NCBI GenBank assembly: GCA_944393665.1
Contig: CALYAX010000007.1
Location: 13,937-77,936 of the forward strand
Direction of reading: 5' to 3'
DNA from: an uncultured Alphaproteobacteria bacterium
GTDB lineage: Bacteria; Pseudomonadota; Alphaproteobacteria; RF32; CAG-239
Length of the DNA stretch: 64,000 bases
Shown here: positions 7,653 through 23,934 of the stretch, in pieces
How positions within the stretch are numbered: the first letter of the stretch is position 1
Layout of the letters: the number at the start of each line of letters is the position of its first letter
Notes under the pieces: generated by a model
Told to the model about the DNA's origin: nothing
Seen by the model: only the letters and a program-made list of their open reading frames with translations
Database searches by the model: none
Position numbers and translations under genes: made by a program

Positions 7653-7681
7653 TTGACCGATAAGATTTTTACATATATATA
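7653..7681 (+). promoter_or_regulatory. Putative sigma70 promoter for tRNA-Glu (TTGACC, 17-nt spacer, TATATA)
   Basis: -35 TTGACC at 7653-7658 and -10 TATATA at 7676-7681. The perfect palindrome tttacatTTatgtaaa at 7629-7645 sits just upstream. Confidence 0.35.
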
Positions 7682-7697
7682 TGCAACCAGCCTAGAT

Positions 7698-7772
7698 GGT
7701 CCCATCGTCTAATGGTTAGGACACCACCCTTTCACGGTGGTAATATGGGTTCGAATCCCGTTGGGATCACCA
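7698..7772 (+). tRNA. tRNA-Glu (anticodon UUC)
   Basis: The cloverleaf can be drawn by hand. Acceptor stem GGTCCCA/TGGGATC, anticodon loop CTTTCAC, T-arm GGTTCGAATCC, and the 3' end ACCA is encoded. A terminator hairpin follows at 7781-7807. Confidence 0.85.
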
Positions 7773-7979
7773 ATCGCAATACCCTCAGTTTTTGAGGGTA
7801 TTTTTTTGTTTAAAGACCTGATGTAATCGTACGGTTTTCTAAGTGTATAAGAGATTTTGCGGTCTTGTAATTTCAAGTTCGAAAGTAAAAGGTGCAAAAT
7901 CTCTCTTTTTGTTTCTACTTTCGAACTCTGGAAGATTTGGTACGCATTATTACCCAAGGAAAGTATTGTGGCGACTGCG
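7767..7979. repeat. Direct repeat copy A (213 bp). It starts with the last 6 nt of tRNA-Glu (TCACCA) plus the tRNA terminator, and is about 90% identical to copy B.
   Basis: Visual alignment of 7767-7979 with 10590-10801, for example the shared 'gtttaaagacctgatgtaatcgtacggtt', 'cttgtaatttcaagtt[c/t]gaaagtaaaaggt', 'ctactttcgaactctggaagatttggtacgcattattacccaaggaaagtattgtggcgactgcg'. Confidence 0.8.
7781..7807 (+). terminator. Rho-independent terminator after tRNA-Glu
   Basis: 'ccctca gtttt tgaggg' followed by a T9 run. Confidence 0.6.
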
Positions 7980-8048
7980 TGTAGCGCGCAAAATGGTTCT
8001 GGATTTATTGCAAAATGGTTCTGGGTCGGTTTTAAAGTCTAGGTTTTT

Positions 8049-8150
8049 GTAAGAAGAAAGATGGATTTACATAACTGGGATTCCGATATATCCCGGTAAA
8101 TCTCGGTTAATCCCAGTTATCCAGAACTATCTTTCTTCTTACACTTTTCG
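8049..8150. repeat. Long imperfect palindrome (about 34-bp arms, about 30-nt centre) in an ORF-free AT-rich stretch
   Basis: Left arm 'gtaagaagaaagatggatttacataactgggatt'. The right arm's reverse complement is 'gtaagaagaaagatagttctggataactgggatt'. The central part 'ccgatatatcccggtaaatctcgg' is itself partly palindromic. Confidence 0.6.
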
Positions 8151-8533
8151 CCATTCTGATGTTTAGTTATGATTTCATTCTTAATACTGTTGGAGAATTT
8201 TGAAGCGTGCATAGAGTTTTTCTTAATATTTACATTGAATAGCTAAAAATGAACTTATTATATAGAATTATTGGCTATTAGCTGAAAAGCTTTACTAATA
8301 AAAGATTTTTCAGATCCATTTTTAGCATATATTGCTGTTTTATTAGTTTCTAGATTGCAATTATGAGTCTTATTTTAATTGGCCCTATATTGACAGCCTA
8401 AATCCTAAATTAAAAGTCATATTCTTAACCTTTCTAATATAAAAGGACATCAAAACGAATACATTTTTCATTAATTAATGTATGGGTTTCCATAATATAC
8501 AACTAGATAATGTTATCAAGAAAAATAAAATAA

Positions 8534-9073
8534 TTAGGTAATTAGCTTATTATAAACTTGTTCTAACAATAGAAAATATACAGATTGACATTTTTCTAAT
8601 TCGCTATCTTTTACAATAGTACCAGCGATAGGAATATCAATTTCAACGATAAAATAATTATCCAAATAACGAACAATATCTAAAAATTGATATAAATATT
8701 CCTTAGTTATAAATTCTTGGTCTGTTAGAAAAAAATCAAAAAAACTATGTGCACATATATTTCTTATTTTTCTAGCCTTTTCTATTATGTCAATTTGGTC
8801 GCTTTTCAAGCAATAGAACTCGAATCCATATTCAAATACACCACCACAACGACTACAATTATTTTTATATTTACTGCTTACCTTTTGGTAAGGCTTGCAA
8901 TTATCAATCAGTTCTATGCTGAAAAAATCTTTTAATTTCTCTGTCAGCATAATTTTTGAATATTCGTATAAAAGCATATGTAATGTTGAAAATATTATTT
9001 GTTCTTTTAATGTTGATGTATCTTCAGACAAGAGTTTCTCCAATTTTTCATTTATACTATCGTAGGTATGCAT
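8534..9073 (-). CDS. Hypothetical protein with a HEPN-like Rx4H motif (Abi_2/AbiD-like abortive-infection candidate)
   Basis: 'EKARKIRNICAHSF' matches the HEPN R-x4-6-H signature. The protein is 179 aa, AT-rich, and located on the island. Confidence 0.3.
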   Translation of the reverse strand: MHTYDSINEKLEKLLSEDTSTLKEQIIFSTLHMLLYEYSKIMLTEKLKDFFSIELIDNCKPYQKVSSKYKNNCSRCGGVFEYGFEFYCLKSDQIDIIEKARKIRNICAHSFFDFFLTDQEFITKEYLYQFLDIVRYLDNYFIVEIDIPIAGTIVKDSELEKCQSVYFLLLEQVYNKLIT

Positions 9074-9169
9074 GTGTTTCAGACCTTTTTACATATAATT
9101 AATTTAAGATATTGTATGTAGTTAATTCTGAGAATACAATATCTTTATTGTAATGATGAGGATTCTAAA

Positions 9170-9790
9170 ATGGATATTAAAGAAATACATGACCAGCAAA
9201 TGTTTCATAAAGAAAATTTAATAAATGTTGAAGAGAATCAACTTTTACAGCATGTAATGGATTTCGCTAAAATGGGACTAAAAGGGATTTTCATACTAAA
9301 TGGAACGGCAGCAATATCTCTATTAACCTTATTTACACACATCATTCTTATAGAAAAATATGATATTGCGCATGGAATTTTCTGGGCAACAATTACTTTT
9401 GCTGTTGGCGCAGCCCTATCTTCATTAAGTATCTTTCTGGCATGGTATGCCCAAGGAAAATTTCAAGATACGGCCTATTATGCTAATCTAATCGAAATTG
9501 CTCGGATTAGAACTTCTCATAGTAAGGACGATAAATTAGATTACATAAAGAAAATGCACATCAAAGAAATATCTATTGATGAAAAAAATGATAAGTTTTT
9601 TAAGAGCTTAAAAATATATCAGGAAGAAAATAATAAGTATATTGATGAACAAATGAAAAAGGAAAGCTCATCAAGGCTAAAAGGAAACTTTACTCAAGGA
9701 TTTGTTGTATTTATAATTTTTCTAGCATTCGCTGCATTCGTCTATGGCATCTTTCTTACTTATGATTCTTTAGAGTGTGTTATAAAATGA
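9170..9790 (+). CDS. Hypothetical membrane protein (2-3 TM helices)
   Basis: Hydrophobic segments 'GIFILNGTAAISLLTLFTHIILI', 'IFWATITFAVGAALSSLSIFLAWY' and 'FVVFIIFLAFAAFVYGIFL'. It overlaps the next ORF by 16 nt. Confidence 0.4.
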   Translation: MDIKEIHDQQMFHKENLINVEENQLLQHVMDFAKMGLKGIFILNGTAAISLLTLFTHIILIEKYDIAHGIFWATITFAVGAALSSLSIFLAWYAQGKFQDTAYYANLIEIARIRTSHSKDDKLDYIKKMHIKEISIDEKNDKFFKSLKIYQEENNKYIDEQMKKESSSRLKGNFTQGFVVFIIFLAFAAFVYGIFLTYDSLECVIK

Positions 9791-10470
9791 TTTATTCCAA
9801 TGCCGATATTAAATTTGAGAATAGATATAGTAGTATTTTCAAGGCCCAGATAGAAATTCATAAAAAAGGTTTGGGAGAAGCTTTTTACAATGAAAAATTT
9901 CAATATTATGAAAAAGTTTTATACAATACTGATGTTATATTTGATAAAATATCTTTACTGGAAAAAAAAGCATTTAATAAAAACTTATATAAACCTTTTA
10001 AATACATAAATATTAAAGGTTTGTATCATGTTCATCATTTTCAGCCACTCAATATGGCAAAAAATTGCAAAAAAATATTCAACGCAAAAGCTAAAAATTA
10101 TTCAATGAATGTTGAACAATATGAAGAGTGCATATTCAGTGTATTATATTTATATAATCGCATGATTAAGAATTTATCTGAAAATGAAGCATATGAAAAA
10201 GCTCTGGGTTATTTAACAAGAAATAGGATCGATGACTGTTATATTGAAGCGTGCGACAAAAAGATACTAACTGGAGATTGGCTTGTCTTATTGCGTAAGG
10301 ATGATGTAAATTACTATTTAACATTAGCTAGACATGAAGAACCTCAAGATATGATTTTCAAACGTGTATTTATAGCAATTGAAGAATTAATATTTGGTAG
10401 AAAGCATGGCTTTGATATTAAGAATGTTGAAGCGGTTAAAAAGCCCTTAGAAACGGAGCTTTGGGATTAA
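9775..10470 (+). CDS. Hypothetical protein (231 aa)
   Basis: Long ORF in the low-GC island, apparently translationally coupled to the preceding membrane protein. No recognisable motif. Confidence 0.35.
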   Translation: MCYKMIYSNADIKFENRYSSIFKAQIEIHKKGLGEAFYNEKFQYYEKVLYNTDVIFDKISLLEKKAFNKNLYKPFKYINIKGLYHVHHFQPLNMAKNCKKIFNAKAKNYSMNVEQYEECIFSVLYLYNRMIKNLSENEAYEKALGYLTRNRIDDCYIEACDKKILTGDWLVLLRKDDVNYYLTLARHEEPQDMIFKRVFIAIEELIFGRKHGFDIKNVEAVKKPLETELWD

Positions 10471-10589
10471 TATTTACTTAATAGTTAGGTATACCGAAAA
10501 AAGAGGTTCGAAATTTTATTGCAACCTACATTGCATTAATGAGACTTAAAAATGTATAAAATCGCATTAGTCCGTACAATTTATTCGGT

Positions 10590-10801
10590 TCACCAATCAC
10601 AACACCTTCCTTTTTGGAGGGTGTTTTTTGTTTAAAGACCTGATGTAATCGTACGGTTTCCTTAGGGTATACGAAATTTTACTGTCTTGTAATTTCAAGT
10701 TTGAAAGTAAAAGGTTCAAAATCTCTCTTTTGTTTTCTACTTTCGAACTCTGGAAGATTTGGTACGCATTATTACCCAAGGAAAGTATTGTGGCGACTGC
10801 G
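10590..10801. repeat. Direct repeat copy B (212 bp). It begins with a tRNA 3'-end-like TCACCAATCACAA and a degenerate terminator hairpin.
   Basis: See copy A. 'ttcaccaatcacaacaccttcctttttggagggtgttttttgtttaaagacctgatgtaatcgtacggtt...'. Confidence 0.8.
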
Positions 10802-10971
10802 ATTGAAAACTTTTCATCGGCTTTAGTCAACAGTTCCGACCTTCCTTCGAGTTTGTACTGTTCTTTTTTTATCTCCTCACTCATATCACGGTATTCTTCC
10901 GGCGTGATTTTCCTTTTATATAACAGTGACCATTGCAACTTGGTTTTTGACAAGATTTTTGTAGATAACAC
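10597..10971 (-). CDS. Repeat-associated hypothetical protein (124 aa). Its C-terminal 70 aa are encoded inside repeat B, and a truncated near-identical reading frame exists in repeat A.
   Basis: The ORF extends from unique sequence into the repeat. The copy-A frame (7709-7957) lacks the N-terminal 42 aa and runs into the tRNA, so it is likely non-functional. Confidence 0.3.
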   Translation of the reverse strand: MLSTKILSKTKLQWSLLYKRKITPEEYRDMSEEIKKEQYKLEGRSELLTKADEKFSIAVATILSLGNNAYQIFQSSKVENKREILNLLLSNLKLQDSKISYTLRKPYDYIRSLNKKHPPKRKVL

Positions 10972-11371
10972 AGCTTAGGTTTCTGATTTTAAAATTTCAA
11001 TCAATACAAAATTTTGGAGAACTTATAGATGTGATATAATAAAAAACTTAGATCGAGAAAATAATGAGGAAAGAATAATTGGTTATAATATAGTATTGCT
11101 TTGCACGATATCGTTTTTTTGCAAGCATATTATCCAATTATTAAGTTAATTTTATATTTCGAACTGGCTGAACTAATTAATAAAAGGTAAAATTTACTAT
11201 TCTTATGAAAGCCCTTTAACTTTATCGGGAAATAAACAAAAAATAAACAAAAAAGACATTTTCTATTTTTTATTCTTGAAAGTTAAAGAAACTTATTATA
11301 TATTATCATCGTATTAAATTAATTACAATGTAGATATTCTAAAAATGAAATAATTTAAAATTTTTATTGAG

Positions 11372-12577
11372 ATGGACAAAAGTGAAAAATTGGCACGGAT
11401 TGAAAAAATCCTGTCTCGTGGTGTAATTAAGAATATTATGCCATCTGAAGAAGAATTCAAAGCACGTTTGTTATCCGATGAGTCTATGCGTTTTTACATA
11501 GGTGCTGACCCAACTAGTAATTCATTACATTTGAGTCATGCAAAGAACTTCATGCTTTTAGAGGAGTTTAGGCAACTCGGGCATAAAGTTTTCGTTCTTT
11601 TCGGAGATTTAACCGCTTGTATCGGAGACCCTAGTGACCGGAATTCTGCTCGTGCAAGACTGACTAGAGAACAGGCTCGGAAAAATGTTGAAGATTGGGT
11701 TCGTCAAATTCGCCCCATAATTAACTTTGATGATCTTGAAAATCCTGCCGAAGTTGTTCTTAACAGTACGTGGTTTGATAAAATGTCAGTTACGAATTTA
11801 ATCGACCTGCTATCCAATTCCACAGTGCAAAGAATGCTTGAAAGGGATATGTTCCAGAAACGTCTCAGCGAGAACAGGCCTATCCATTTGCATGAGTTTA
11901 TCTACCCCATGTTTCAGGGATTTGATAGCGTCGCATTGGATGTAGATGTAGAAATTTGTGGTTTAGACCAGACATTTAATGCCCTTATGGGAAGAACTCT
12001 TGTCAAACGCTTTAAAGACAAGGAAAAGTTCGTTGTTTGTGTTAATTTGATGGAAAACCCTGTTACTGGTGAATTGATGTCAAAATCAAATGGTACAGGG
12101 GTTTTCCTTAACATTGATGCACAAACCATGTTCGGTCAAATCATGGCACTACCGGATGAAATGATTAAGCTTATTCTTATTAACAATACCCGCGTTTCTT
12201 TAGAAGAAATAGAGGCGTTGGATATTAAGAATCACCCTCGAGATGCTAAAATCTTTACAGCGACAGAAGTTGTCAGAATTTTCCATGGCCAAAAAGCAGC
12301 AAATAATGCGAAACAGACTTTTTTAGAGACATTCTCTAATAAGACGTTTCCCGCAGATGCTCCGGTTATTGAAATTGAGACCCCTGAAATTCAGGTGTTG
12401 GAACTTCTGAAAAAATGCAAAAATGAGTCGAATTCTGAATTGAGACGGCTTGTTAAGCAGGGTGCTGTAAGTGCTGATGGCAAAAAAATTACCGATGAAA
12501 CCTCAATTCTTGAGGTCAAACAAGAGCTTCAGCTCAAAGTTGGTAAACGAGGATTTTTCTTAATAAGAAGTAAGTAA
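11372..12577 (+). CDS. tyrS: Tyrosyl-tRNA synthetase paralog (class I; HIGH-like 'HLSH', KMSKS-like 'LMSKS', C-terminal S4 domain)
   Basis: 'FYIGADPTSNSLHLSHAKNFMLLEEFRQLGHKVFVLFGDLTACIGDPS' aligns with the E. coli TyrRS 'GFDPTADSLHLGHL...[22 protein letters not shown]'. 'ELMSKSNGTGVFL' corresponds to KFGKT/KMSKS. C-terminal 'LVKQGAVSADGKKITDE' is S4-like. Confidence 0.8.
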   Translation: MDKSEKLARIEKILSRGVIKNIMPSEEEFKARLLSDESMRFYIGADPTSNSLHLSHAKNFMLLEEFRQLGHKVFVLFGDLTACIGDPSDRNSARARLTREQARKNVEDWVRQIRPIINFDDLENPAEVVLNSTWFDKMSVTNLIDLLSNSTVQRMLERDMFQKRLSENRPIHLHEFIYPMFQGFDSVALDVDVEICGLDQTFNALMGRTLVKRFKDKEKFVVCVNLMENPVTGELMSKSNGTGVFLNIDAQTMFGQIMALPDEMIKLILINNTRVSLEEIEALDIKNHPRDAKIFTATEVVRIFHGQKAANNAKQTFLETFSNKTFPADAPVIEIETPEIQVLELLKKCKNESNSELRRLVKQGAVSADGKKITDETSILEVKQELQLKVGKRGFFLIRSK

Positions 12578-12590
12578 ATTATTCACTATA

Positions 12591-12633
12591 AAAGAAAAGG
12601 TTAGAGTTTTATTCTCTAGCCTTTTCTTTTTAT
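12591..12633 (+). terminator. Rho-independent terminator after the TyrRS-like gene (16-bp stem)
   Basis: 'aaagaaaaggttagag-ttttatt-ctctagccttttcttt' followed by a T-rich stretch. Confidence 0.6.
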
Positions 12634-12641
12634 AAAAAATA

Positions 12642-12670
12642 TTGACAAAATTTTAAAGAAGCTTATAAGT
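12642..12670 (+). promoter_or_regulatory. Putative sigma70 promoter (TTGACA, 16-17 nt, TATAAG) for the sulfotransferase-to-HAD operon
   Basis: 'aaaaatATTGACAaaattttaaagaagctTATAAGtt'. A nearly identical -35 context 'aaaaatattgacaa' recurs at 16337 upstream of the TrpRS-like gene. Confidence 0.4.
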
Positions 12671-12701
12671 TAATTATTCATTAAAAATTCAGGAGAGTAG
12701 T

Positions 12702-13586
12702 ATGGGAAAAGATATTATCCCTATTTTTGTATTAGGTACTCCTAGATCTGGAACTACTGTTATTGGAAAATATATTTCAACCCACAAAGATATCTTGGAC
12801 ATGGGAGAATATGCCGGTTTTGATTTTACTTATCGTGTTGCTCCCAATTTAATGAAAACATTACCGTCTACTTTTAAGGATGAGTATTTATTTAGTCTTC
12901 AAAATCATGCAACACAATTCGCTCACGAAATGGCAATAAAAAATAATTGCCATTATTTTTGTGATTCTACTCCATGGACATTATTAGCTATGGATAAAAT
13001 TAAAGACAAATTGCCCGGTGCAAAATTTGTTTTATGTATACGAGAACCTCAAGGTGTGATACAGAGCCTGGAACGCAGCTTCAAAAGCGGGAGGAAATGG
13101 GCCGGAGAAAATAATCAGGAGCGTTTTAGACTTTGGAAAGATTTTTATGAAAAAGTAAAATTTATTCCTCAAAAAGATCTAATGGTATTCAATTATAGTA
13201 ATTTCTGCAAAAAACCTGAGGAAGAACTCTCTCTATTAGATCAGCAGTTATTTGCGCATGGTATTACTCCAACTTCGCTAGATAAAACGATTTTTGCAGA
13301 AACTCATGCCACTGTTGTATCTGATCATCGGCCTGTTAGTGCCAGAGTTGATAATAACGGTCATATTACATTATTGGCACGGGAAGATTGGAACAATGAA
13401 AAATGGACCATTCAAGATGAAATGATGTTGCAAACTGACAATGGATATAAGGAAATTTTAAATTTTTTAAAGAATTTACCGTTAAAAAATAGTTTACACC
13501 CTGCTGTTATTTATAAAAATAAATATCTTTCTTCTTTAGCTCAAAATGTTAATATGGTAACAAATTTGAAAGATAATATTCGGTAA
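12702..13586 (+). CDS. PAPS-dependent sulfotransferase family protein
   Basis: N-terminal 5'-PSB-like P-loop 'VLGTPRSGTTVIGKYI'. Size and architecture are typical of the Sulfotransfer family. Confidence 0.5.
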   Translation: MGKDIIPIFVLGTPRSGTTVIGKYISTHKDILDMGEYAGFDFTYRVAPNLMKTLPSTFKDEYLFSLQNHATQFAHEMAIKNNCHYFCDSTPWTLLAMDKIKDKLPGAKFVLCIREPQGVIQSLERSFKSGRKWAGENNQERFRLWKDFYEKVKFIPQKDLMVFNYSNFCKKPEEELSLLDQQLFAHGITPTSLDKTIFAETHATVVSDHRPVSARVDNNGHITLLAREDWNNEKWTIQDEMMLQTDNGYKEILNFLKNLPLKNSLHPAVIYKNKYLSSLAQNVNMVTNLKDNIR

Positions 13587-13619
13587 AGAAAGTACATATA
13601 TTTAAGCTAGAGTTTAATT

Positions 13620-14690
13620 ATGAAAAATTATGAGCTACTACTGCACCATATTCAAAATGGTGTTGTGTTATCAAGATTAGAAATTTTTAATGCTTTGAAG
13701 ACATTGTACCATGAGACAGACAACCAGCAAGCAAAATTTTGCATGGGAATGATTCTTTATGGGTTATCCGTAAGAGTTCCTACGCCTGAAGAACTTTGGG
13801 GCTTAGTTGATTTTGTTGAATATCTAGAACCATCTCTCCTAAAAAATAAGAGAAAACTTCCAATTTGTGAACCTGTCATTGGTTTGGCGGGAAGTGGCAA
13901 AAAAGGTATAAAAACCTTTAATATATCAACTATCTCTGCAATTGTTGCAAGTGCGGCGGGGTGCTTTATTTCTAAAGCCGTATCCAAATCAGTTTCTTCT
14001 GTGACCGGCTCTTCTGATATATTAAGTGCTGCCGGAGTTAACATAGATATTTCATTTGAAAAAATGATAAAAATTTTTACAGAAACAGGGCTTGGTATTT
14101 TTCAAATCGAAAAGACCATTCCTAAATTTGACAATTTTTATGGTGGAATATTTTTAGTCCCTCATGCACTATCGTATGCGCTTGCTGCTATTGTTAACCC
14201 TATTTTATGTGATAGCATTATTTATGGTTTTGCTGGAAAAAATATTGAAATTTCCAGTAAAATTTTGCATCAGATAGGATTAAAAAAAGGTGTGGTTGTT
14301 TCATCAACAGATGATAAAGTCTTATATATTGATGAGCTCACTCCATTGCAATATAATAATATTTCTTATATTGAGACACAAAAAACCTCTAAAAATATTA
14401 ATCTAACAAACATATTTGGATGTAAAAGATGTTCTCCTGATGAATTGAAAAGCAGCATAGATATAAATGGTCAATTAGATATTTTTAATTTATGTCTTTC
14501 AGGAAAGGCATCTCAAGCTCAAAATAATGCTATTGCAATGAATACAGCTTTTATGATTACCGAAGCTGGGATTACAGACAATCTAAAAACAGCTTTTGAA
14601 ATGGCTCATGATATTATTATGTCGGGAAAGGCATTAAAACAATTTAATCATTTCAAAGAAATGGTCAATGATTTGGGAGAGGACAGATGA
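13620..14690 (+). CDS. Divergent anthranilate phosphoribosyltransferase (TrpD)/glycosyltransferase family 3 homolog with an altered PRPP-binding loop
   Basis: 'GLAGSGKKGIKTFNISTISAIVASAAGCFISKAVSKSVSSVTGSSDILSAAGVNIDI' compared with the E. coli TrpD '[54 protein letters not shown]'. GTGGDG and KHGNR are replaced, suggesting a changed substrate. Confidence 0.6.
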   Translation: MKNYELLLHHIQNGVVLSRLEIFNALKTLYHETDNQQAKFCMGMILYGLSVRVPTPEELWGLVDFVEYLEPSLLKNKRKLPICEPVIGLAGSGKKGIKTFNISTISAIVASAAGCFISKAVSKSVSSVTGSSDILSAAGVNIDISFEKMIKIFTETGLGIFQIEKTIPKFDNFYGGIFLVPHALSYALAAIVNPILCDSIIYGFAGKNIEISSKILHQIGLKKGVVVSSTDDKVLYIDELTPLQYNNISYIETQKTSKNINLTNIFGCKRCSPDELKSSIDINGQLDIFNLCLSGKASQAQNNAIAMNTAFMITEAGITDNLKTAFEMAHDIIMSGKALKQFNHFKEMVNDLGEDR

Positions 14691-15685: not shown

Positions 15686-15692
15686 GGATTTC

Positions 15693-16310: not shown

Positions 16311-16349
16311 ACCCTTTAAACATCGAAAACTTATTTTAGCTAAAAAATA

Positions 16350-16392
16350 TTGACAATTTGACAAAATAAAATTAATGATTTACTAATAATAT
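16350..16392 (+). promoter_or_regulatory. Putative promoter upstream of the TrpRS-like gene (tandem TTGACA elements)
   Basis: 'aaaaatATTGACAatTTGACAaaataaaattaatgatttactaataat'. It shares the 14-mer 'aaaaatattgacaa' with the 12636 promoter. Confidence 0.3.
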
Positions 16393-16435
16393 TAGGTGCG
16401 AGAATAACAATTCGCTTTTAAACGGAACTAAAAAT

Positions 16436-17557
16436 ATGTCTAAAGATATTTCATCAAACTTAATCTTTAATGATGAATATTATAAAGAAGTCATTGATAA
16501 ATATGGCTACAATGCTTTTGATTTCAAACCTATTGATTTTGATATTTCTCATTTGGATAAAAAGGCACTCAATCAACGGTGGTTATGTCATTTTGATGGA
16601 GAACCTTTTTCTCAAGCAATAAATAATAAAGAAAAAGCAATCGTCACAACTGGAGTTGGATTATCCGGGGCTCCTCACATGGGAACAATTTCCCAAATGA
16701 TGCGTGCAATATTTTTACAGGAACAAGGATTTAATGTTCAATTCGTCTTGGGGGACTTAGATTCATATAATGCTCGCTCTCAACCATATCCTGTTGTAAA
16801 AGCCAGGGCTGAACAATATAAAGAATTCATTACCAACCTTGGCTTTTCAAAGGAAAAAGGAATTTTACGCTCACAAGATAATAATCCTGAAGTCTGCAGA
16901 ACGGCTTATTTGATTTCTCGATGCCTGACAGATGAAGATTTCCTTAATGCAGAAGAAGACTTATCGGAATTATATCAAAAACAAGGTGCTTATCCAGGTA
17001 TTAAATATCCGGTTAAACAGGCTATCAATCTAATGGTGGCTGATTTTATTCATCTTGGAATGGCAGATAAGAATAAAAGTGTTATGGTAATGCTTGGTTT
17101 GGAAGAACATCTCTATGTCAGAATTGCAAAGGATGTTATAAAAAGGATGGAAATGCCTTTTCATCTCGGAGCAATGTATTCCAAAATTATTAAAGGCTTC
17201 AATGGTTTTCCTAAAATGAGTAAAAGTATTCCCGGATCCTCAATAAACGTTGATATGAATATTGATCAAATAAGACATAAACTTCAACATGAAGAAGGGC
17301 ATTACAGCAAACCTGATGATTCTGTTGCCTATCAAATGATGTGTGCTGTCTCAAATTATACCCCTAGAGATCTAAATATTCTTCACGAAAAATGTTCTGT
17401 CGGCGGTCGGTATTGGAGTGCGGCAAAAGATGAATATGCAGAATATCTTGACTCTATTTTTAAAAAATGGCCTAAGGATAAGGTATTCGATCGGAGTGCA
17501 ACTATGAATCCTATAGATATGTTTATTATGAAAAATGGCTGCGGCAGAAAACTCTAA
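16436..17557 (+). CDS. trpS: Tryptophanyl-tRNA synthetase paralog (class I, KMSKS present)
   Basis: 'TGVGLSGAPHMGTISQMM' resembles the TrpRS 'GxQPSGELHLGNY'. 'GLEEHLYVRIAKDV' resembles 'GEDQKQHLELSRDIA'. Exact 'FPKMSKSIPGS'. Confidence 0.7.
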   Translation: MSKDISSNLIFNDEYYKEVIDKYGYNAFDFKPIDFDISHLDKKALNQRWLCHFDGEPFSQAINNKEKAIVTTGVGLSGAPHMGTISQMMRAIFLQEQGFNVQFVLGDLDSYNARSQPYPVVKARAEQYKEFITNLGFSKEKGILRSQDNNPEVCRTAYLISRCLTDEDFLNAEEDLSELYQKQGAYPGIKYPVKQAINLMVADFIHLGMADKNKSVMVMLGLEEHLYVRIAKDVIKRMEMPFHLGAMYSKIIKGFNGFPKMSKSIPGSSINVDMNIDQIRHKLQHEEGHYSKPDDSVAYQMMCAVSNYTPRDLNILHEKCSVGGRYWSAAKDEYAEYLDSIFKKWPKDKVFDRSATMNPIDMFIMKNGCGRKL

Positions 17558-17958
17558 AATTTAATTTTAGCCAAGACTTCATCACTATTATATTCTTTTT
17601 TTTCAAGCTTAGGCCATGTATCTAACCCATCATTGTCAAAACGAGGGAAAATATGGATATGAAAATGGAATACTGACTGCTGAGCAGATTTACCGCTGGC
17701 ATGTAATATATTAATACCTGTAGCACCTAACCGTTCTTTTAAATGCAAACTAATTTTTTTTGCAAACTTGATAATATGAGTAAGCTCTTCTTCTGGAATA
17801 TCAAAAATATTTTCATAATGCTTATTAGGAACGATAAGCAAATGACCATAGACCTCCATTTTTCTGGGTAGAAAACAAGATAAGATATTATCTTGATAAA
17901 TTATTTTTCCCGGAAGTTCTTTGGCACAAATCTTACAAAATACACACTCCATGAGCAA
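17554..17958 (-). CDS. HIT-family (histidine triad) nucleotide phosphoramidase/hydrolase
   Basis: N-terminal 'CVFCKI' and the histidine triad 'HFHIHIFPR'. It is convergent with the TrpRS-like gene, sharing 4 nt with it. Confidence 0.75.
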   Translation of the reverse strand: MLMECVFCKICAKELPGKIIYQDNILSCFLPRKMEVYGHLLIVPNKHYENIFDIPEEELTHIIKFAKKISLHLKERLGATGINILHASGKSAQQSVFHFHIHIFPRFDNDGLDTWPKLEKKEYNSDEVLAKIKF

Positions 17959-18706
17959 CTCCTTATTGGAAAATTATATTATTTGTAGCTTAATATAATA
18001 AAAAATATATGTCAAACAGGTAGTTAATGAGTAAACTATATAAAAAATACCAATCCAAGTTAAATTTACTGGAATTTTCAATACAAATTATTTCAAAAGA
18101 AAATAAAAAAAGATTTTTGAAGGATATAATTATATCGCTAATGTTGCTTTAGATGAATTTCCTCGGATATCTTTTCAACAAGGCAGTACTTTGATGACAC
18201 CGCATATTCACGGAATATTTTCATAGTTGTCAAAACGGATTTGTGTGGAAATATATTCTTTTATAATACTCTCAGGTAGCATTTTTTTATCCTTATCTAA
18301 AATTTTAATTTTCATAAAATTTAGAGCGACCGAAATTTTAAGGTACAAAAAAGCATCTTAAAACTTCAAACAAAAGTCCTAAGACGCTAGTTTTGGTCCG
18401 GATATTTTTTTAACAGACTTTACGCTAAGCACTAGCAACGCACGAGAGTCCCGAGGAAGAGCCCTCGGAAAATTCCAGGCACCTTGTTTCCAAGATACAA
18501 GGTTATTGTGCCTTATTTTTGTAAAATTATCAAGTTTATATTTGTTGTGATTAAAACTTATAGTTTTTTGTTTGTTGGATTGTCAGAGAATGAGGAACTT
18601 TAATTTTTCAGTACGAATTTATCGTTTTTTCGAAACAACACACCAGACATCAAGAAAACGAGTTTTTTGTTGCTTCAAAAAAATTACTGATATTTGTTAC
18701 ATTGAG

Positions 18707-19825
18707 CTAAAAAGGAAGTTCATCATAGATTTGTTTAGCTTCTAAATATTCTGTTTGTATATTGCTAATAAATGTTTCACCAAATGTTTCTACGAGCTGA
18801 TTTAATACATTGAATTTTCCATATTGCTCATGTAATTTATAAAGCGTCGAATACGGGTATTTATCAATATTTAAATTTTTTATACTTGAGATGAATAGGC
18901 TAGACATAGTATCATTCATAAAAATATCTGTTAGACTAGAGGAAAATGATAGATTTAGTGAATAAATTTTATAATACTCTTTATGGTCAATATATTCAAA
19001 AATATATTGCATATATAAGGGCAATAAATCATTATTATTTTTAATTTCGTAGCATTCCATATTTTTGTTGTCGCACCAGTCTTTCAAGCTTGTTAATAAT
19101 ATTTTATTAATGCGTTTTTGAGAGAGTTTAGATATATCTTTCCAGTGTTCATTTCTTAAAATATATATTAGCAGAGCAATTTCTTTTAAATTGTTAGATT
19201 TTTCTAGTTTTGTATCAGCACTTTTAATATAAATGTATTGTTCATTTTGAGGGAGACTATTAAATATTTTATATGTAAAATTAAATACATTAGGATTGAT
19301 ACTATCATCACATAAAGAAATTAATGTATCTAATAATTTTTTTTCTGGAATTCTATTTAGAATTTCATTTATATATTCTTCATCGTCGACATAATATAAA
19401 TCATTAAGTTTTTGATGAATATCATTTATAGAATAAAAAGCTTCTCCTTTTATAAGTGCGGCTAGCGCATAATTAATCATTATTAGCTGTAAATCACAGA
19501 CCTCTTTAGACGGGGTTATAATATTGTGGTGAACTGGATTTCTGTACATATAATATAAACTACAAATGTAGCTCATCATTCCTTGTTGGATATTTTTATC
19601 TGTTTCCGTTTTTAGTGGGTTCATTTTTATTAAAGGTTTGTTTAGTGAAAATGCTTCTTGAACTAGTTTAGCTCCATCTTTGTCTAATCCAGACTTTTCA
19701 CGCAATTTATTGGTTAAATAAAGCATTGCATTGCTTAATACGTCTCGGTAGTTTTCTATTTCATAATTTTTTTTTATGAAATTATATAAATCATTATCAA
19801 TATTAATTTCCGGCCTGAATTTCAT
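18707..19825 (-). CDS. Hypothetical protein (372 aa), very AT-rich
   Basis: Long ORF with no recognisable catalytic motif. Confidence 0.35.
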   Translation of the reverse strand: MKFRPEINIDNDLYNFIKKNYEIENYRDVLSNAMLYLTNKLREKSGLDKDGAKLVQEAFSLNKPLIKMNPLKTETDKNIQQGMMSYICSLYYMYRNPVHHNIITPSKEVCDLQLIMINYALAALIKGEAFYSINDIHQKLNDLYYVDDEEYINEILNRIPEKKLLDTLISLCDDSINPNVFNFTYKIFNSLPQNEQYIYIKSADTKLEKSNNLKEIALLIYILRNEHWKDISKLSQKRINKILLTSLKDWCDNKNMECYEIKNNNDLLPLYMQYIFEYIDHKEYYKIYSLNLSFSSSLTDIFMNDTMSSLFISSIKNLNIDKYPYSTLYKLHEQYGKFNVLNQLVETFGETFISNIQTEYLEAKQIYDELPF

Positions 19826-19847
19826 TATTTTTTCCTAATTGGATACA

Positions 19848-20204
19848 TTATTTGCTATTCCACCATGCTAAAGCAGCTAATCCGGCTAATGAGATAGATT
19901 GAATTATATTTCCTAAGATAGATTCCTTTGCTCTATAATTATATTTAATAGTTTTTAAAATGCTATCTGTCCCGATTAATGCACAAATGAAAATTATACC
20001 CATAAAAATAAATGGAGGCATTATCTGTTTTATATTTTCTTTGTTTTGATATAAAGAAATCATATCTAAACAATAAGATATAAGCCATATAACAATTAAC
20101 CAAATAACAGCTAAAATGATTGTGGCTGATACTTTTGAAATGTTGTTTGCTAAAAGATTAGTTTCTGTTTTAGGTTCTTGTTCTGTCTTTGTTTCTATGT
20201 CCAC
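19848..20204 (-). CDS. Small hypothetical membrane protein (3 TM)
   Basis: 'ATIILAVIWLIVIWLISY', 'FIFMGIIFICALIG', 'IIQSISLAGLAALAWW'. Confidence 0.35.
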   Translation of the reverse strand: MDIETKTEQEPKTETNLLANNISKVSATIILAVIWLIVIWLISYCLDMISLYQNKENIKQIMPPFIFMGIIFICALIGTDSILKTIKYNYRAKESILGNIIQSISLAGLAALAWWNSK

Positions 20205-20700
20205 TAGAGATATCCTTTCAATTTTTTTAATCTATATTACACCACTTTGACTTACAAGATAAAATGTAATTATATTTTTTTATCTTTGGGATAAATATTA
20301 GAGTTAATAAAATGGTGATGAATGATATATCAAATTAATTTTCTATAATTTCTTGATATTTGTGATTATTTTGTAAAAATGTCTTAGCTAATCGGTATGT
20401 GTACATAGTTGCCTTGTAATATTCAGGAGTAAATAATAGTTCGAAATTCGTTGCGAAACTGTCACCAATGCAAACGGCGGCCTACAAAATGGCTGCTTTT
20501 TCTTTATTTTCCAAAGCTTTCAGCGAGTTCGAGTGTTTGATTTTCAAAAATTGCGTTTGGGGAAGTTTTTCTGAACTTTGGCGCTAAGGTTTCTTTGTTT
20601 TTCAATGGATTAATTGATTTGTTTGGTTTTGAGATTCTGGGATATTTAAAACTTGTCAATTAAAATAATTTATTGTTTAATTTCATTATAGGAGATTACA

Positions 20701-21177
20701 ATGATGAAAATAAGGGTTCCTTTGGCAAAAGATGTTCCTGCAATCACAGAAGTAATTCAATCAGCATATAAAGTTTGTTATCGTGGATATGTGCCTGATG
20801 AATATTTGAATAATTTATGTATTACTGCAGATATTTTACAAAAATGGCATGATTATTTACAAAAATATGAATGCTATGTGGCAGAAAAAAATAAACAGAT
20901 TGTAGCATTTCTAATGGCAATGGAAGATAACTCAGATACTTTTGAAATTGGGGTATTATACGTAAAACCAGAGTACCAAAAAATGGGAATAGGCACTTTA
21001 TTAGTTGATTATTTGTGTAAAATAAAGAAAAAAAACGATTATAAAACCTGCAAAGTTTGGACCATAAAAAATGGTCCTTCAGTTGGTTTTTATAATAAGG
21101 TAGGATTTACAATTACAAAATATGAAAAACCTTGGAAATTTGACATTCCAATTATAATGATGTTAAAAATTTTATAA
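20701..21177 (+). CDS. GNAT-family N-acetyltransferase
   Basis: Motif A-like 'YVKPEYQKMGIGTLLVDYL', 158 aa. It is flanked by short intergenic repeats. Confidence 0.55.
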   Translation: MMKIRVPLAKDVPAITEVIQSAYKVCYRGYVPDEYLNNLCITADILQKWHDYLQKYECYVAEKNKQIVAFLMAMEDNSDTFEIGVLYVKPEYQKMGIGTLLVDYLCKIKKKNDYKTCKVWTIKNGPSVGFYNKVGFTITKYEKPWKFDIPIIMMLKIL

Positions 21178-21393
21178 AAGCTCGTAAACTGTGAGTTAAG
21201 AAGCACCAATACAAACAGTACTCTTTTCAGGGCGCTGTTTTGCTTTTGTAATCAGGGCTTTCAGCGAGTTCGAAAGTTGTAAATACAAAAATTGCATTTT
21301 TGGAAATTTTACGAGCTCACCTTGACAAAATTACAATAAAATCAAGCACTAAACTATACATTTGAGTATTTTTATTGACAAAAAAATATAGAT

Positions 21394-22380
21394 ATGACAC
21401 ATTATACTTATGGTATGGCTCTTTTATCTGGAGATAAAATTATGCTTTCAGAAGAACAAATGATGTTGCTCATTAATAAGCATAAACCGAATAACTATTT
21501 AACATGTTCTCCGGAAGAAGCTTTTCAGATGACGGAGTATGTTAAAGATAAAATTTCAAAAAGTGAAGTTCGTGAAGTTTATGACCTTTTGGAGATTATA
21601 GAAAAGTGTTCTCCTCCTGACCATGATGATTTTGAATTGATTAAACATTACAACGAATTATATGCAGATATTAATATTACCAAATATCCTTCTTACCAAG
21701 GAAAAAATTTGAAATATGGTTGCAATATAAAAAATTTTTATGATGCTAATCAATATATGAATGATGAGAATAGCGTTTCCCGTTGTGTATCAATTTTTAA
21801 TCGAATTGCCGATCCATCAAAAGGTCTTCCAAACAAAGCTTTGTTTGATTTATCTCGGAAATGTGATATCACCTTCAAGATAATTTCAGGGACAAATTTT
21901 GATGGCGAATGCCGTTATATCCAGCCTGAGGAAAAATCAAAACCGGCCATTGCGGTCGTTATCACTCAAAAAGCTCTTGAGGCTTCAGATGACTCTTTGG
22001 CCGTTCTTTTAGGACATGAATTGTCACACGCTATTGATATTAATCGACGGCCATTTGGTTATAATGGCAGCATCGGATGGGAAGCCCCTGAAGATTTTGC
22101 AAACATTGTAGGTTCTCAGATTGCTCAAAATGCAGGATACGATCCTAGAGAATTTATCAAAAGTCAGGGAGTGGAAAATGAAAAAACACAAAGGGCTGCC
22201 GAAATGATTTTAAAATACTCCTTAGATCCGTTTCGATTAAAATGCAGCAGATTACACGAAAAAATAAAAAATAAGAGTGGTGAAACAGCACATGTTGAAA
22301 CAGATAAAGCCGAGGAAAAGAAAACACAAGTGAATATTTCACAATTGATAATGAAACGAAAAAAAAGGTTCAGGGGATAA
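21394..22380 (+). CDS. Hypothetical protein with an HExxH zinc-metallopeptidase motif
   Basis: 'LLGHELSHAID'. An acidic/Lys-rich C-terminal tail. No signal peptide. Confidence 0.35.
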   Translation: MTHYTYGMALLSGDKIMLSEEQMMLLINKHKPNNYLTCSPEEAFQMTEYVKDKISKSEVREVYDLLEIIEKCSPPDHDDFELIKHYNELYADINITKYPSYQGKNLKYGCNIKNFYDANQYMNDENSVSRCVSIFNRIADPSKGLPNKALFDLSRKCDITFKIISGTNFDGECRYIQPEEKSKPAIAVVITQKALEASDDSLAVLLGHELSHAIDINRRPFGYNGSIGWEAPEDFANIVGSQIAQNAGYDPREFIKSQGVENEKTQRAAEMILKYSLDPFRLKCSRLHEKIKNKSGETAHVETDKAEEKKTQVNISQLIMKRKKRFRG

Positions 22381-22708
22381 TAAATTTTAGCTCATAATTT
22401 GCTTGCTAAGCATCATCAATACAAACAACAGATCTAAAAACAGTTTGTTATTAGCATTTACACTAAATGTTTATTTCCCGGTTCTTTATTTTCTTCTGAA
22501 ATAAGATATCGGTAATATTGTTTTATTTAAAAACAGTGCCAGAGGCCGGGATACATATCAGCAAAGCAAGTCATACAAACCTTGTGGATATCTTGATTTC
22601 GGAAGATTGAAAAGCAGGCTTTAGTTTCCAACATCTTTAGTATTGCATAAAAGATATCAGATAAAAATATCCGGACTTATACAAAACTATTTATCTTTTT
22701 GTAACTTT

Positions 22709-23695
22709 CTAAGCTGGCAGATACAACTTACGTAGTGGCAGAAGAACCTTTCCTTCTGCTCTAAAATTATCGTAATGCACACCTATCAGCTCGGTCAGGA
22801 TATCTAAATCGACCAAGAATACGGGGGTCTTAGCCCTTTCTGCTTCATATCTAGCTTCTTTAGTAAAACCACCCGTGCTGACGTAAATACAGCGATCTCC
22901 GACCTGTCTTCCACCGAGGAAAGTTCTAATTTCAGGAGCTCCCATTTGTCCTTTGCGATGTTTAACCTCAACAAAAATACGTGGCTCTTCCAGGCCCAAA
23001 CCATCTCTGGAGGCAAAAACGTCAATACCCCGGTCTGCCCCTTTAGGACTTCTACGAGCAATATAACCCATTGCATTCAATATTTCTTTGACAAGTTCTT
23101 CCATATCATCTGGAGATAAATTTAATATTCGATCTTTTAATGTTTCTGTTGAATTTTCAAGAAGTTCATTAGATTGAAGTTCCAGCTCTTCAGCAACTTC
23201 CTGTTCATTTTTGGCAATTTCTTTTTTGTTTTTAAGGAGGCTCAAAATTTCAACTTCAGCATCGTGAGAAAGACGAAACACTGTTGACAGACTGCCCAAA
23301 GAATTTTTAGAAGTACTGGACAAATCATCTCTGGATATTGTTCTAGCATTCCATTCAACTTTACGCAGATTGGGATATTCCTTAATGAGTTTATTATTAT
23401 AATAGTAATCGCTGACAACTTCGCCAATGTAATACAAGCGGTTACTTTTATCATATGTTATAATGTAATCACCCTTTTTTATGAAATTAACAAAAGAATC
23501 AATGATGCCAATCCACTGGAATATAGCTTTTTCATTAGGGTATTTTTCCTGTACAAGTTCCTTAATTTGATTTCTGCTTTTTCCAGCCAAATCACCTAAA
23601 GCCTCCCAGCCAAGAGCCGCAACTTTATTTTTTAAGAATAAAGGAAGTAATTCTCCTCCCTGAGAACGAACCATCCAGATATTCACCATGATCAA
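22709..23695 (-). CDS. Mrr-family restriction endonuclease (Mrr_N plus Mrr_cat PD-(D/E)xK)
   Basis: C-terminal 'GADRGIDVFASRD...IFVEVKHRKGQMGAPEIRTFLG...YVSTGGFTKEA', typical of Mrr_cat. The N-terminal 110 aa are Mrr_N-like. Confidence 0.6.
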   Translation of the reverse strand: MIMVNIWMVRSQGGELLPLFLKNKVAALGWEALGDLAGKSRNQIKELVQEKYPNEKAIFQWIGIIDSFVNFIKKGDYIITYDKSNRLYYIGEVVSDYYYNNKLIKEYPNLRKVEWNARTISRDDLSSTSKNSLGSLSTVFRLSHDAEVEILSLLKNKKEIAKNEQEVAEELELQSNELLENSTETLKDRILNLSPDDMEELVKEILNAMGYIARRSPKGADRGIDVFASRDGLGLEEPRIFVEVKHRKGQMGAPEIRTFLGGRQVGDRCIYVSTGGFTKEARYEAERAKTPVFLVDLDILTELIGVHYDNFRAEGKVLLPLRKLYLPA

Positions 23696-23934
23696 ACTCC
23701 TTATCTTTTTTGTTTATAAAATAACGTAAAACAAATTTATTTAAGACAGGTTAATACAATATGTTCTTATCTATTCTTAAAATTTACGGACTATCTGAAA
23801 ACACTAAAAAATCATTCGGCAAAAAATCTAAAAAACAGATTTAACGCCATAATTTGCTCTCTTCTTGTAAGTCCCGGAATTCCGGGGTTTATTTTTTGAA
23901 AAAACTGTTTTATAAAATAGCCAAGGAGATGATT

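Follow-up and report, generated by a model that had tools for sequence, protein, structure and literature searches.

We analysed a window of 64,000 nucleotides from an uncultured Alphaproteobacteria bacterium (GTDB lineage RF32; CAG-239; GenBank assembly GCA_944393665.1, contig CALYAX010000007.1, positions 13,937 to 77,936 of the forward strand), in which an AT-rich stretch of about 16 kb follows a tRNA-Glu gene. Our results indicate that this stretch, positions 7773-23900 or so of the window, is very probably an acquired composite island, built by repeated site-specific integration at one site with the 7-bp core CACCAAT. An earlier note on this DNA had described an island of 16 kb inserted next to tRNA-Glu. 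The acquired island stands, whereas the single insertion gives way to a tandem array of at least five units delimited by copies of the core. The evidence comes from the base composition, the junctions, relics of large serine recombinase (LSR) genes, intact elements with identical ends in other genomes, a different occupant of the same site in another strain of the species, and the distribution of the cargo genes.

The earlier note had placed the island at 7698-23900, from a drop of GC content after tRNA-Glu and its return near an alpha/beta hydrolase gene. Both changes are real, and those coordinates are correct to about 100 nt. The GC content is 0.314 in 7773-23870, compared with 0.483 on the left (1-7697) and 0.467 on the right (23871-64000). 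Among windows of 1 kb, the 15 inside the island have a mean of 0.312 (maximum 0.368) and the 47 outside a mean of 0.471 (minimum 0.367; Mann-Whitney p = 4e-9), and the change points of the cumulative GC curve lie at about 7421 and 23971. The GC content of third codon positions (GC3) is 0.20-0.35 in all open reading frames (ORFs) of 8534-23695, with the exception of a recombinase fragment (0.46). It is 0.45-0.61 in core genes, including 0.49-0.53 in three genes of the left flank (3799-7442) and 0.52-0.56 in two genes of the right flank (23854-25978). Hence, GC and codon usage, the sliding-window check that the note had proposed, both set the island apart, and the profile is not uniform. The island starts directly past tRNA-Glu. 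Its outer right end was set by composition, as GC3 changes from 0.31 to 0.52, and lies between 23696 and 23928. Horizontal acquisition at the tRNA gene is thus borne out by the compositional shift together with the recombination junctions, the recombinase gene remains and the comparative data that follow.

The tRNA-Glu gene at 7698-7772 is the sole tRNA gene of the window. Its last five bases, including the CCA end, plus AT make up the core, copies of which start at 7768, 10591, 20463 and 21204 (CACCAAT) and at 22414 (variant CATCAAT) and delimit the segments S1 to S5. The core with an arm-like left context was found at those five sites only, all of them on the plus strand and within the island. 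The backbone of the array is as follows:

7698-7772, plus strand: tRNA-Glu(UUC), intact, with encoded CCA end (ARAGORN; Rfam RF00005, 64.6 bits)
7768-7774, plus strand: core copy 1, the attL junction
7775-10590: segment S1, about 2.8 kb, GC 0.288, with LSR relic 1 and three ORFs
7727-8104, minus strand: LSR pseudogene fragment 1, C-terminal part only, entering the antisense of the tRNA 3' end
10562-10597, plus strand: junction of S1 and S2, where a diverged right arm GTCCGTACAATTTATTCGGTT precedes core copy 2, CACCAAT (10591-10597)
10598-20462: segment S2, about 9.9 kb, GC 0.315, an LSR element that has been gutted and now holds foreign cargo
10597-10971, minus strand: LSR pseudogene fragment 2, an ORF of 124 amino acids (aa), with homology over 10612-10929
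18068-18221: relic of an internal backbone gene, 89.6% identical to L123rc 4715-4867 and L124rc 13177-13329, and 94.7% to MT836653
20353-20469, plus strand: right-end relic and attR of S2, 78.6% identical to the right ends of L124rc and L126rc
20463-20597, plus strand: element E, about 135 nt, made up of the core, a terminator hairpin and a 50-bp inverted repeat, GAGTTCG...CGAACTC
20470-21203: segment S3, 0.74 kb, with E and an acetyltransferase gene
21179-21320, plus strand: junction of S3 and S4, an arm AGCTCGTAAACTGTGAGTTAAGAAG mimicking a tRNA 3' half, core copy 4 (21204-21210) and a second, degenerate E
21211-22413: segment S4, 1.2 kb, with the degenerate E (E') and a gene for a 328-aa orphan protein
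22389-22420, plus strand: junction of S4 and S5, a degenerate arm AGCTCATAATTTGCTTGCTAAGCAT and the core variant 5, CATCAAT (22414-22420)
22421-23870: segment S5, about 1.5 kb, with an Mrr-like nuclease gene
23696-23928: right boundary zone, AT-rich and intergenic, with a terminator-like hairpin at 23871-23898

The 7 bp are the only sequence common to all junctions. The arms on either side are not identical, and the five core copies are preceded by three kinds of arm. The right arm of S2, AGTTCGAAATTCGTTGCGAAACTGT (20438-20462), which precedes core copy 3 (20463-20469), resembles the T-arm and acceptor of a tRNA and is one base off the arm of the intact elements described below. The cores at 21204 and 22414 are each preceded by the motif AGCTCGTAAxxTGxGAGxTAAGxAx, which also stands at unit boundaries in the relatives L018, L119, L012, L022 and L017. 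As we read these sequences, the motif appears to be laid out like a tRNA 3' half, with a 5-bp stem, a 7-nt loop, 7 nt and CACCA. When the whole window was searched for repeats of the tRNA 3' end, with up to three mismatches allowed, only the junction of S1 and S2 was found; the junctions at 20463, 21204 and 22414 were recognised from reading the sequence and from relatives. The first pattern used for the native downstream motif, CAARCGGCAGKYATRAAAAC, missed the window copy, which has more than three mismatches.

S1 and S2 each open with the last 106-126 codons of an LSR gene. These ends form a direct repeat (7789-7979 and 10611-10801, 92% identical) that starts near the last bases of the tRNA and encodes the LSR C-terminus on the minus strand. 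In the 518-aa LSR of L024, fragment 1 matches residues 402-518 at 61.9% identity; with residues 436-513 of an intact 539-aa LSR, P0150, its identity is 98.7%. Fragment 2 is 72.6% identical to residues 392-497 of the L024 protein and 85.8% identical to residues 393-498 of P0137, an intact LSR of 546 aa. The window copies retain LSR residues 392-518 only, and tblastn found no LSR catalytic domain in the whole 64 kb. The earlier note had advised a search for an integrase in the vicinity: recombinase remains do exist, but inside the island, as two truncated LSR 3' ends and with no intact gene. The island is therefore immobilised, a decayed member of its class without an integrase gene.

Regarding the ends of these genes, the LSR frame finishes in the antisense of the tRNA-Glu 3' end in L024 (11677-11725), L019, L002 (3953-4010) and the window (7727-7772). 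The last 16 or so LSR codons (...IGDPNGIRTH) thus come from the tRNA gene, so that integration defines the C-terminus of the recombinase. Where relic 1 stops (8104), there is a near-perfect inverted repeat of 35 nt (8048-8143, 86% complementary, 26-nt spacer), perhaps the scar of a deletion or else a small hairpin element. An apparent third repeat copy at 26076-26120 (78% over 45 nt) was taken as chance, the match at the protein level having E = 0.59.

Intact counterparts of these relics occur in other gut Alphaproteobacteria. The intact LSR of L024 has Resolvase, Recombinase and Zn_ribbon_recom domains and adjoins tRNA-Glu. The Resolvase, Recombinase and zinc-ribbon domains are also found in the intact LSRs P0121-P0158, one related recombinase being labelled 'Acetobacter sp. 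CAG:267' by its source. An intact LSR adjoins tRNA-Glu in L019 and L123 as well, and an LSR homologue does so in L020. The complete elements measure 9.65-9.68 kb, with tRNA-Glu, core and LSR at the left end and the right arm AGTTCGAAATTCGTTGCAAAACTGT plus core at the other. In L123rc the order is tRNA-Glu(CUC), CACCAAT, the LSR, 13 more called genes, AGTTCGAAATTCGTTGCAAAACTGT, CACCAAT and E, with 9,680 bp from core to core. The elements of L124 and L126 measure 9,651 bp and have an identical right arm and core, followed by unrelated sequence. Since the sequence past the core differs among the window, L123 and L124, that is, in independent genomes, the recombination junction is placed at the core; divergence exactly at this point is the signature of site-specific recombination.

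S2 shares its outline with these elements. Over 10591-20462 (9.87 kb) it retains three backbone relics, namely the LSR 3' end (10590-10931), the internal relic (18068-18221) and the right end (20353-20469). The length of S2 nearly equals that of the intact elements, even though nearly all of the content has been replaced; this match may be a coincidence or reflect a size constraint such as packaging.

These data are consistent with a scheme in which elements of about 9.7 kb, with an LSR gene at one end whose 3' end runs antisense into the tRNA gene, would act as vehicles. Integration at CACCAAT, presumably catalysed by the LSR, would spare the tRNA by keeping its CCA end, and would put a fresh terminator hairpin behind it each time. 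As a second core copy would be left at the far end, new elements could stack by tandem accretion. S1 and S2 would be two such elements in tandem and S3-S5 short single-gene units behind them, bounded by the core and presumably mobilised in trans. Later deletion and cargo replacement would have removed the catalytic part of both LSR genes, leaving the array frozen. An array fixed for lack of a recombinase fits its presence in all conspecific assemblies.

Element E provides a further argument. A nhmmer profile of E, built without the window, matches 20463-20596 (86 bits, E = 7.6e-26) and, in degenerate form, 21204-21320 (55 bits, E = 2.7e-16). In L040, L041, L021, L016 and L119, E directly follows tRNA-Glu. 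In L012, L014 and L022 the two are separated only by scars of 0.2 kb, which carry a repeated tRNA 3' end. The joining of tRNA-Glu to E is thus the equivalent of an empty site for S1 plus S2, and since the two adjoin in relatives, these 12.7 kb are intercalated here between sequences that are adjacent elsewhere. The empty-site comparison proposed by the earlier note thereby has its answer for the left three quarters of the island. E itself is conserved at about 75-80% among genomes whose flanking deacetylases are only 46-65% identical to that of the window. Its terminator stem covaries, and an inverted repeat GTTCGAA...TTCGAAC, which spans exactly 50 bp, is nearly invariant. The same repeat with the same 50-bp spacing lies in the LSR 3' coding region (7870-7919 and 10692-10741 of the window). 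A protein may bind there, the repeat may serve as a second att site, or it may be what is left of an LSR gene end; the translated similarity of E to the LSR C-terminus is weak and comes partly from tRNA-encoded residues.

For comparison of the locus we used 30 loci from genome contigs of relatives, reached through the flanking deacetylase and with up to 10 kb of downstream DNA, as well as 11 loci from metagenome contigs. The deacetylase-bearing relatives are uncultured gut Alphaproteobacteria. The order class-II aminoacyl-tRNA synthetase (aaRS), deacetylase, tRNA-Glu is kept in 19 of the 30 loci, and GC also drops past tRNA-Glu in many of them. Within this downstream DNA, neither the island genes nor the genes of the right flank were found in any of the 30. 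In the relatives examined for it, the cargo past tRNA-Glu differs: L017 has an EcoRV restriction-modification pair that forms one unit, L013, L021, L040 and L041 have a C5 methyltransferase pair, and L018 has HAD, GNAT and kinase genes. Core and hairpin arrays follow tRNA-Glu in at least six relatives. Altogether, the tRNA-Glu site is a hot spot across the lineage. Within the species, the left flank of L002 is 99.8% identical to that of the window and diverges exactly after ...GGGATCACCAAT (7774), the sequences being unrelated beyond. The occupant of L002 includes an LSR of another family, 55% identical to the LSR of L019. The island is present in all conspecific assemblies of sufficient length, and variability within the species was seen at the left junction only. 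An empty site joining tRNA-Glu directly to the flank at 23.9 kb, which the earlier note had expected in related genomes, was found neither among the 30 relatives nor among the 11 metagenome loci.

As a separate observation, the gene for ClpB (89% identical) and two neighbours lie 5 kb past tRNA-Glu in L018 (10324-14043) and 53 kb past it here (60239-63999). This placement makes the tRNA-Glu locus a synteny breakpoint, for which a rearrangement between element arrays is a possible cause. We did not retain ClpB as the ancestral right flank, given that the synteny is seen in one relative only (L018). The stretch between 24 and 60 kb has native composition and was not counted as island.

The joins of the window are not unique to its assembly. 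Both boundaries are spanned in ERZ24773224 NODE_2052 (100% identical, possibly the source of the window) and in GCA_964316525.1 (99.3%, clearly independent). ERR15648817 spans the right part, and Logan contigs from several other samples cover parts. The Logan contigs break at 7776, 10772, 18192 and 23728. The first three positions coincide with repeats or relics common to other elements, and the break at 18192 is probably explained by the shared relic at 18068-18221; for the break at 23728, within the AT-rich boundary zone, there is no such explanation.

The distribution of the cargo of S2 also bears on how the island was acquired. This cargo is a cluster of seven genes (11372-17958), six of them on the plus strand and the seventh, a HIT gene, convergent, and a core of six genes, all but the sulfotransferase gene, recurs in other bacterial groups. 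The family searches agree with the earlier note on the gene content of the island, that is, an HEPN protein with an Rx4H motif, an Mrr nuclease and an operon with two class-I aaRS-type genes. The genes of the island and the first gene beyond it are as follows, with functions predicted from family matches:

8534-9073, minus strand: 179-aa protein with the Rx4H motif RNICAH (S1)
9170-9790, plus strand: 206-aa protein with hydrophobic stretches (S1), with a 34%-identical homologue in the L024 island
9775-10470, plus strand: 231-aa protein (S1)
11372-12577, plus strand: tyrosyl-tRNA synthetase (TyrRS), full-length, 401 aa (TIGR00234, 312.9 bits, cut-off 113.8; PF00579 and SYY C-terminal domain)
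12702-13586, plus strand: sulfotransferase (Sulfotransfer_3), absent from all other cluster versions examined
13620-14690, plus strand: TrpD-like phosphoribosyltransferase (Glycos_transf_3, PF00591; TIGR01245, 138 bits, under the cut-off of 199)
14687-15685, plus strand: zinc-dependent alcohol dehydrogenase (family match)
15693-16310, plus strand: HAD-family phosphatase (family match)
16436-17557, plus strand: divergent class-Ic aaRS paralogue, 373 aa, similar to tryptophanyl-tRNA synthetase (TrpRS) and TyrRS (PF00579, 44 bits; PHMG, which is HIGH-like, and KMSKS kept)
17554-17958, minus strand: HIT-family (HinT-like) hydrolase, convergent with the operon
18707-19825, minus strand: Hypoth_Ymh-domain HEPN protein, motif RNPVHH (PF09509, 85 bits; TIGR02391; PADLOC PD-Lambda-3_B, 47 bits)
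20701-21177, plus strand: GNAT acetyltransferase (S3)
21394-22380, plus strand: 328-aa orphan protein (S4), no family match
22709-23695, minus strand: Mrr-like nuclease (Mrr_cat, PF04471; PADLOC candidate PDC-S02, 295.7 bits), GC3 0.31 (S5)
23929-24780: alpha/beta hydrolase, GC3 0.52, the first gene with core-like composition

We found the cluster in Alphaproteobacteria, on a metagenome contig of another Gram-negative bacterium, in Clostridium and on a Bacillus plasmid. In the distant relative L119 it stands after tRNA-Glu (5975-11584), without the sulfotransferase gene. In L115 (8621-15138) it occupies a low-GC islet adjoining tRNA-Thr, in Clostridium beijerinckii it lies beside a transposase and a resolvase, and on the Bacillus thuringiensis plasmid pBMB172 between insertion sequence elements, with an MFS transporter and tyrS. 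In L121 the cluster covers 10001-17247, and in L133 (NZ_CP021438.1) 110240-116636. All versions seen are thus in mobile contexts. The occurrence of the same genes at the same locus in a relative, which the earlier note would have taken against acquisition, is formally the case in the distant L119. However, the cluster was not found in the downstream DNA of any of the 30 closer loci, and the cluster proteins of L119 are 57-83% identical to those of the window, compared with 46% for the flanking deacetylase. These data argue for a shared site-specific vehicle rather than vertical descent.

Several points weigh against an array built by repeated integration at tRNA-Glu. The short core pattern is not significant by itself, as 12 of 100 shuffles gave at least three matches; hence, the case rests on the extended junction context. 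Neither an excised circle nor an attP junction was found, the sole phage-labelled record with this LSR being the integrated form, and no nucleotide-exact empty site was found in a conspecific strain. The use of a tRNA gene as attB by an LSR has not been experimentally shown for any element (PMC7192596). S3-S5 have no recombinase relic, and their mobility is suggested only by the repeated junction motifs. The right end of S5 showed no junction motif, and the outermost right end near 23.9 kb no repeat. In addition, the hydrolase orthologue of a sister species (L104-L113; 79% identical) lies beside tRNA-Lys(UUU) and not tRNA-Glu, so S5 may have a separate history. In that species, the sequence common to the strains begins about 60 nt before the start codon of the hydrolase gene, which also supports the right boundary set here by composition. 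Between tRNA-Lys and the hydrolase, the strains differ in their low-GC inserts, which measure 0.26, 2.3, 3.9 and at least 8-10 kb. It is conceivable, if unlikely, that only S1 and S2 (12.7 kb) came in through tRNA-Glu and that S5, or perhaps S3-S5, derives from such a hydrolase-linked variable region and was joined by a chromosomal rearrangement. The broken synteny, with ClpB at such different distances from tRNA-Glu in L018 and here, and the bare right end of S5 would fit this course of events. However, S3 and S4 start with E and the CACCAAT core, both of which are confined to tRNA-Glu loci in relatives, a search of the window for a relic of the tRNA-Lys 3' end found none, and the inserts of the sister species share no genes with S3-S5. 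We consider it very improbable that the island arrived in a single event and that its internal repeats are later duplications. Its fairly uniform composition (GC3 0.20-0.35) and its occurrence as one block in every conspecific assembly spanning it would agree with one arrival, and a pre-assembled array could have moved as one block. Against this, the two LSR relics belong to different subfamilies; they are 92% identical to each other but 98.7% and 85.8% identical to different intact LSRs. The five core copies with their three kinds of arm, the match of the S2 ends alone to a complete element of 9.65-9.68 kb, and the direct succession of tRNA-Glu and the E of 20463 in relatives also speak for several integrations.

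The elements might also be degenerate prophages or phage satellites, and the island a prophage remnant, but this seems quite improbable. The idea draws on the GenBank record MT836653.1 (L131; 'UNVERIFIED: Bacteriophage sp.', from human faeces, 9,264 nt), the LSR of which is 94.5% identical to P0137. The narrow range of sizes (9.65-9.68 kb, and 9.87 kb for S2) could reflect a packaging limit, and the elements have many small ORFs, with a weak PHROG match of DUF3768. Nevertheless, MT836653 includes the host tRNA-Glu and attL in the tRNA-core-LSR arrangement. It is therefore chromosomal DNA with an integrated element and not an excised phage genome. Moreover, IMG/VR holds no close relative of the LSR, and Pfam and PHROG searches of the island and of four intact-element ORFs found no capsid, terminase, portal, tail or phage-replication family; the remaining nine or so backbone ORFs of the intact elements have almost no precomputed Pfam match. 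A native, fast-evolving AT-rich stretch without any transfer, a mis-assembly or a binning chimera has a negligible probability in our judgement. The source is metagenome-assembled, AT-rich regions are often poorly assembled and the Logan contigs do break here, yet several samples gave assemblies with the same joins, both boundaries being spanned in two of these assemblies, and three of the four breaks fall at shared repeats or relics, 23728 being left unexplained. Furthermore, cargo more conserved than the flanks across distant hosts and junctions identical to those of intact elements do not fit the absence of transfer.

Islands linked to tRNA genes are textbook material, and the bare finding of one is ordinary. 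The newer aspects, of moderate interest, are the target choice of the recombinase, the array of very small units and an unexplored aaRS gene cluster. The staphylococcal cassette chromosome (SCC) has rlmH/orfX as its target and either the ccrA/ccrB pair or ccrC as its recombinases. SCC (SCCmec and others) and the Enterococcus cassette chromosome are LSR cassettes that stack one behind another where a conserved gene has its 3' end (PMC11470126; PMC6222049). The island and its relatives resemble them in the use of an LSR, in integration at the extreme 3' end of a housekeeping gene without inactivation, in tandem arrays that include recombinase-less units, and in defence genes as cargo. They differ in that the target is the CCA end of a tRNA gene and not rlmH/orfX, the recombinase is a single LSR and not ccrA/ccrB or ccrC, the LSR frame ends in the antisense of the target, the hosts are uncultured gut Alphaproteobacteria, and no resistance gene was seen.

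Islands with tyrosine integrases are described as inserting into the 3' part of a tRNA gene, which regenerates the target and leaves a displaced or mimicking 3' fragment at the far end (PMC4383910). Tandem arrays arise because the core is restored at both ends (PMC7192596). Our elements are like those catalogued by Islander and TIGER in the insertion at the tRNA 3' part, the 3'-end mimic at the far end and the tandem arrays, and unlike them in having a serine recombinase and only 5 nt of the tRNA within the shared core. In the TIGER survey, tRNA or tmRNA genes were used by 44.5% of tyrosine integrases and 4.9% (14/297) of serine integrases, and the use of tRNA genes by the latter was presented as previously unreported and in need of experimental proof (PMC7192596). 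In this sense, the present locus offers clean comparative evidence that an LSR family targets a tRNA gene, as intact and decayed copies in several genomes have the same junctions. The sequences themselves give the att sites, the predicted attP being AGTTCGAAATTCGTTGCAAAACTGT-CACCAAT-TGCGATACCCTCAG and the predicted attB the tRNA-Glu 3' end-CACCAAT-E. The LSR might serve as a genome-engineering integrase for a conserved tRNA target.

Recombinase-less, att-flanked units are also known from arrays of cis-mobilizable elements (CIMEs) and integrative and conjugative elements (ICEs) in streptococci, where they accumulate beside elements that use the same site. These arrays and the tycheposons of Prochlorococcus use tyrosine recombinases. 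Tycheposons form tandem cargo arrays linked to tRNA genes (bioRxiv 10.1101/2020.12.28.424599). Our array has the recombinase-less att-flanked units and the tRNA-linked tandem arrangement in common with both, and differs in its much smaller units of 0.2-2 kb. On a larger scale, the locus illustrates the organisation of the accessory genome in an uncultured lineage of the human gut, with small units that accrete at one site and then fossilise.

S3, S4 and the units of L017, L018, L022 and L023 also recall integrons, as they form arrays of one- or two-gene units with junctions in the same orientation and a fixed anchor. However, there is no IntI tyrosine recombinase, attI, Pc or attC-type site here, the orientation of the genes is mixed (Mrr is on the minus strand), and the junctions are tRNA 3'-half mimics with a terminator hairpin instead of attC. 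No Phage_integrase match was found in the 16 island ORFs and four flanking ORFs scanned. We raise, as a rather doubtful idea, that the tRNA-Glu 3' end may be an integron-like capture platform run by LSRs, in which the LSRs of the 9.7-kb elements would insert, stack and shuffle short units in trans. Each of these recombinase-less units would hold one or two genes and be bounded by a tRNA 3'-half mimic on one side and the 135-nt E on the other. If this were so, the locus would be a standing library of defence and antibiotic-related genes.

Returning to the cargo of S2, the genes shared by the cluster versions encode the TrpRS-like ligase, the TrpD-like phosphoribosyltransferase, the zinc alcohol dehydrogenase, the phosphatase and a full TyrRS. 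Some versions have extras, namely HIT, an MFS transporter, a GT4 glycosyltransferase, the sulfotransferase or an APH kinase. All versions examined encode a complete TyrRS (263-313 bits for those scored with TIGR00234; by annotation as tyrS for pBMB172), and on pBMB172 its gene is necessarily a second tyrS. The TrpRS-like protein is far under the cut-off of every NCBIfam TrpRS model, and its best PDB match is an archaeal TrpRS (E = 2e-5). It has 189 homologues at E <= 1e-5, mostly of about 340 aa. Resistant target synthetases are part of the antibiotic clusters for indolmycin (TrpRS), mupirocin (IleRS), albomycin (SerRS) and agrocin 84 (LeuRS). The cargo of S2 is similar in that a complete and possibly extra synthetase gene stands among small-molecule enzymes, to which the pBMB172 version adds an MFS transporter. 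It differs in that this enzyme set fits no described pathway in the literature searched, where no description of the cluster was found either. By analogy, we tentatively suggest, at somewhat less than even chance, that the cluster may specify a pathway to a secreted TyrRS inhibitor together with a self-resistant TyrRS, with HIT and GNAT as possible immunity enzymes. The locus thus exposes a cluster that appears to have the architecture of an antibiotic pathway with its self-resistant target enzyme, for which we found no describing paper. PADLOC gave only two chance-level matches of about 14 bits on the cluster.

The defence-type cargo of the island consists of two Rx4H/HEPN proteins and the Mrr-like nuclease. 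PADLOC recognised no complete known defence system in the island; its matches are candidate or partial ones, to PDC-S02 (296 bits), to PD-Lambda-3_B (47 bits, one domain) and, for the HIT protein, to a ThsC-like protein (64 bits). The Hypoth_Ymh HEPN protein has an extra, uncharacterised C-terminal region of about 250 aa, and the adjacent ORF of 118 aa (19848-20204, minus strand) may encode its partner. The ORFs of S1 had no Pfam, NCBIfam or PADLOC match, and PHROGs gave nothing usable. PADLOC, PHROGs and NCBIfam also gave nothing usable for the orphan protein of S4, which has 8 matches in 5.8 billion clusters, one of them itself. Its homologues in L128 and L129 belong to a low-GC islet of about 5 kb adjoining tRNA-Thr. 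Near the homologues of this protein in other genomes, which lie by tRNA-Thr or in other contexts, no E or arm motifs were found.

In L124 and L125, the arrays past the intact element (11842-21641) encode DUF3800, HATPase_c_3, RhuM/Fic, AAA_25 and Cas1-Cas2-Cas9 proteins; there, the attachment-site array thus carries recognised defence systems. On the right of the island in the window, outside the interval flagged by the earlier note, GC dips to 0.35-0.37 at 28.5-30 kb. An autotransporter gene (26120-28822, GC3 0.38) and a 680-aa orphan ORF (29229-31271, GC3 0.41) are of intermediate composition, and this region may be an older acquisition. In the sister species, part of the tRNA-Lys T-arm is duplicated in L109 and L112; with the strain-variable inserts described above, the tRNA-Lys locus is a second tRNA-linked hot spot. 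Finally, gut proteobacterial genomes contain low-GC islets of 5-8 kb by tRNA-Thr(GGU) (L128, 5874-10900; L115, 7700-15727), which hold the homologue of the S4 orphan and Fic in L128 and the aaRS cluster in L115. Small AT-rich islets linked to tRNA genes look like a general feature of these genomes.

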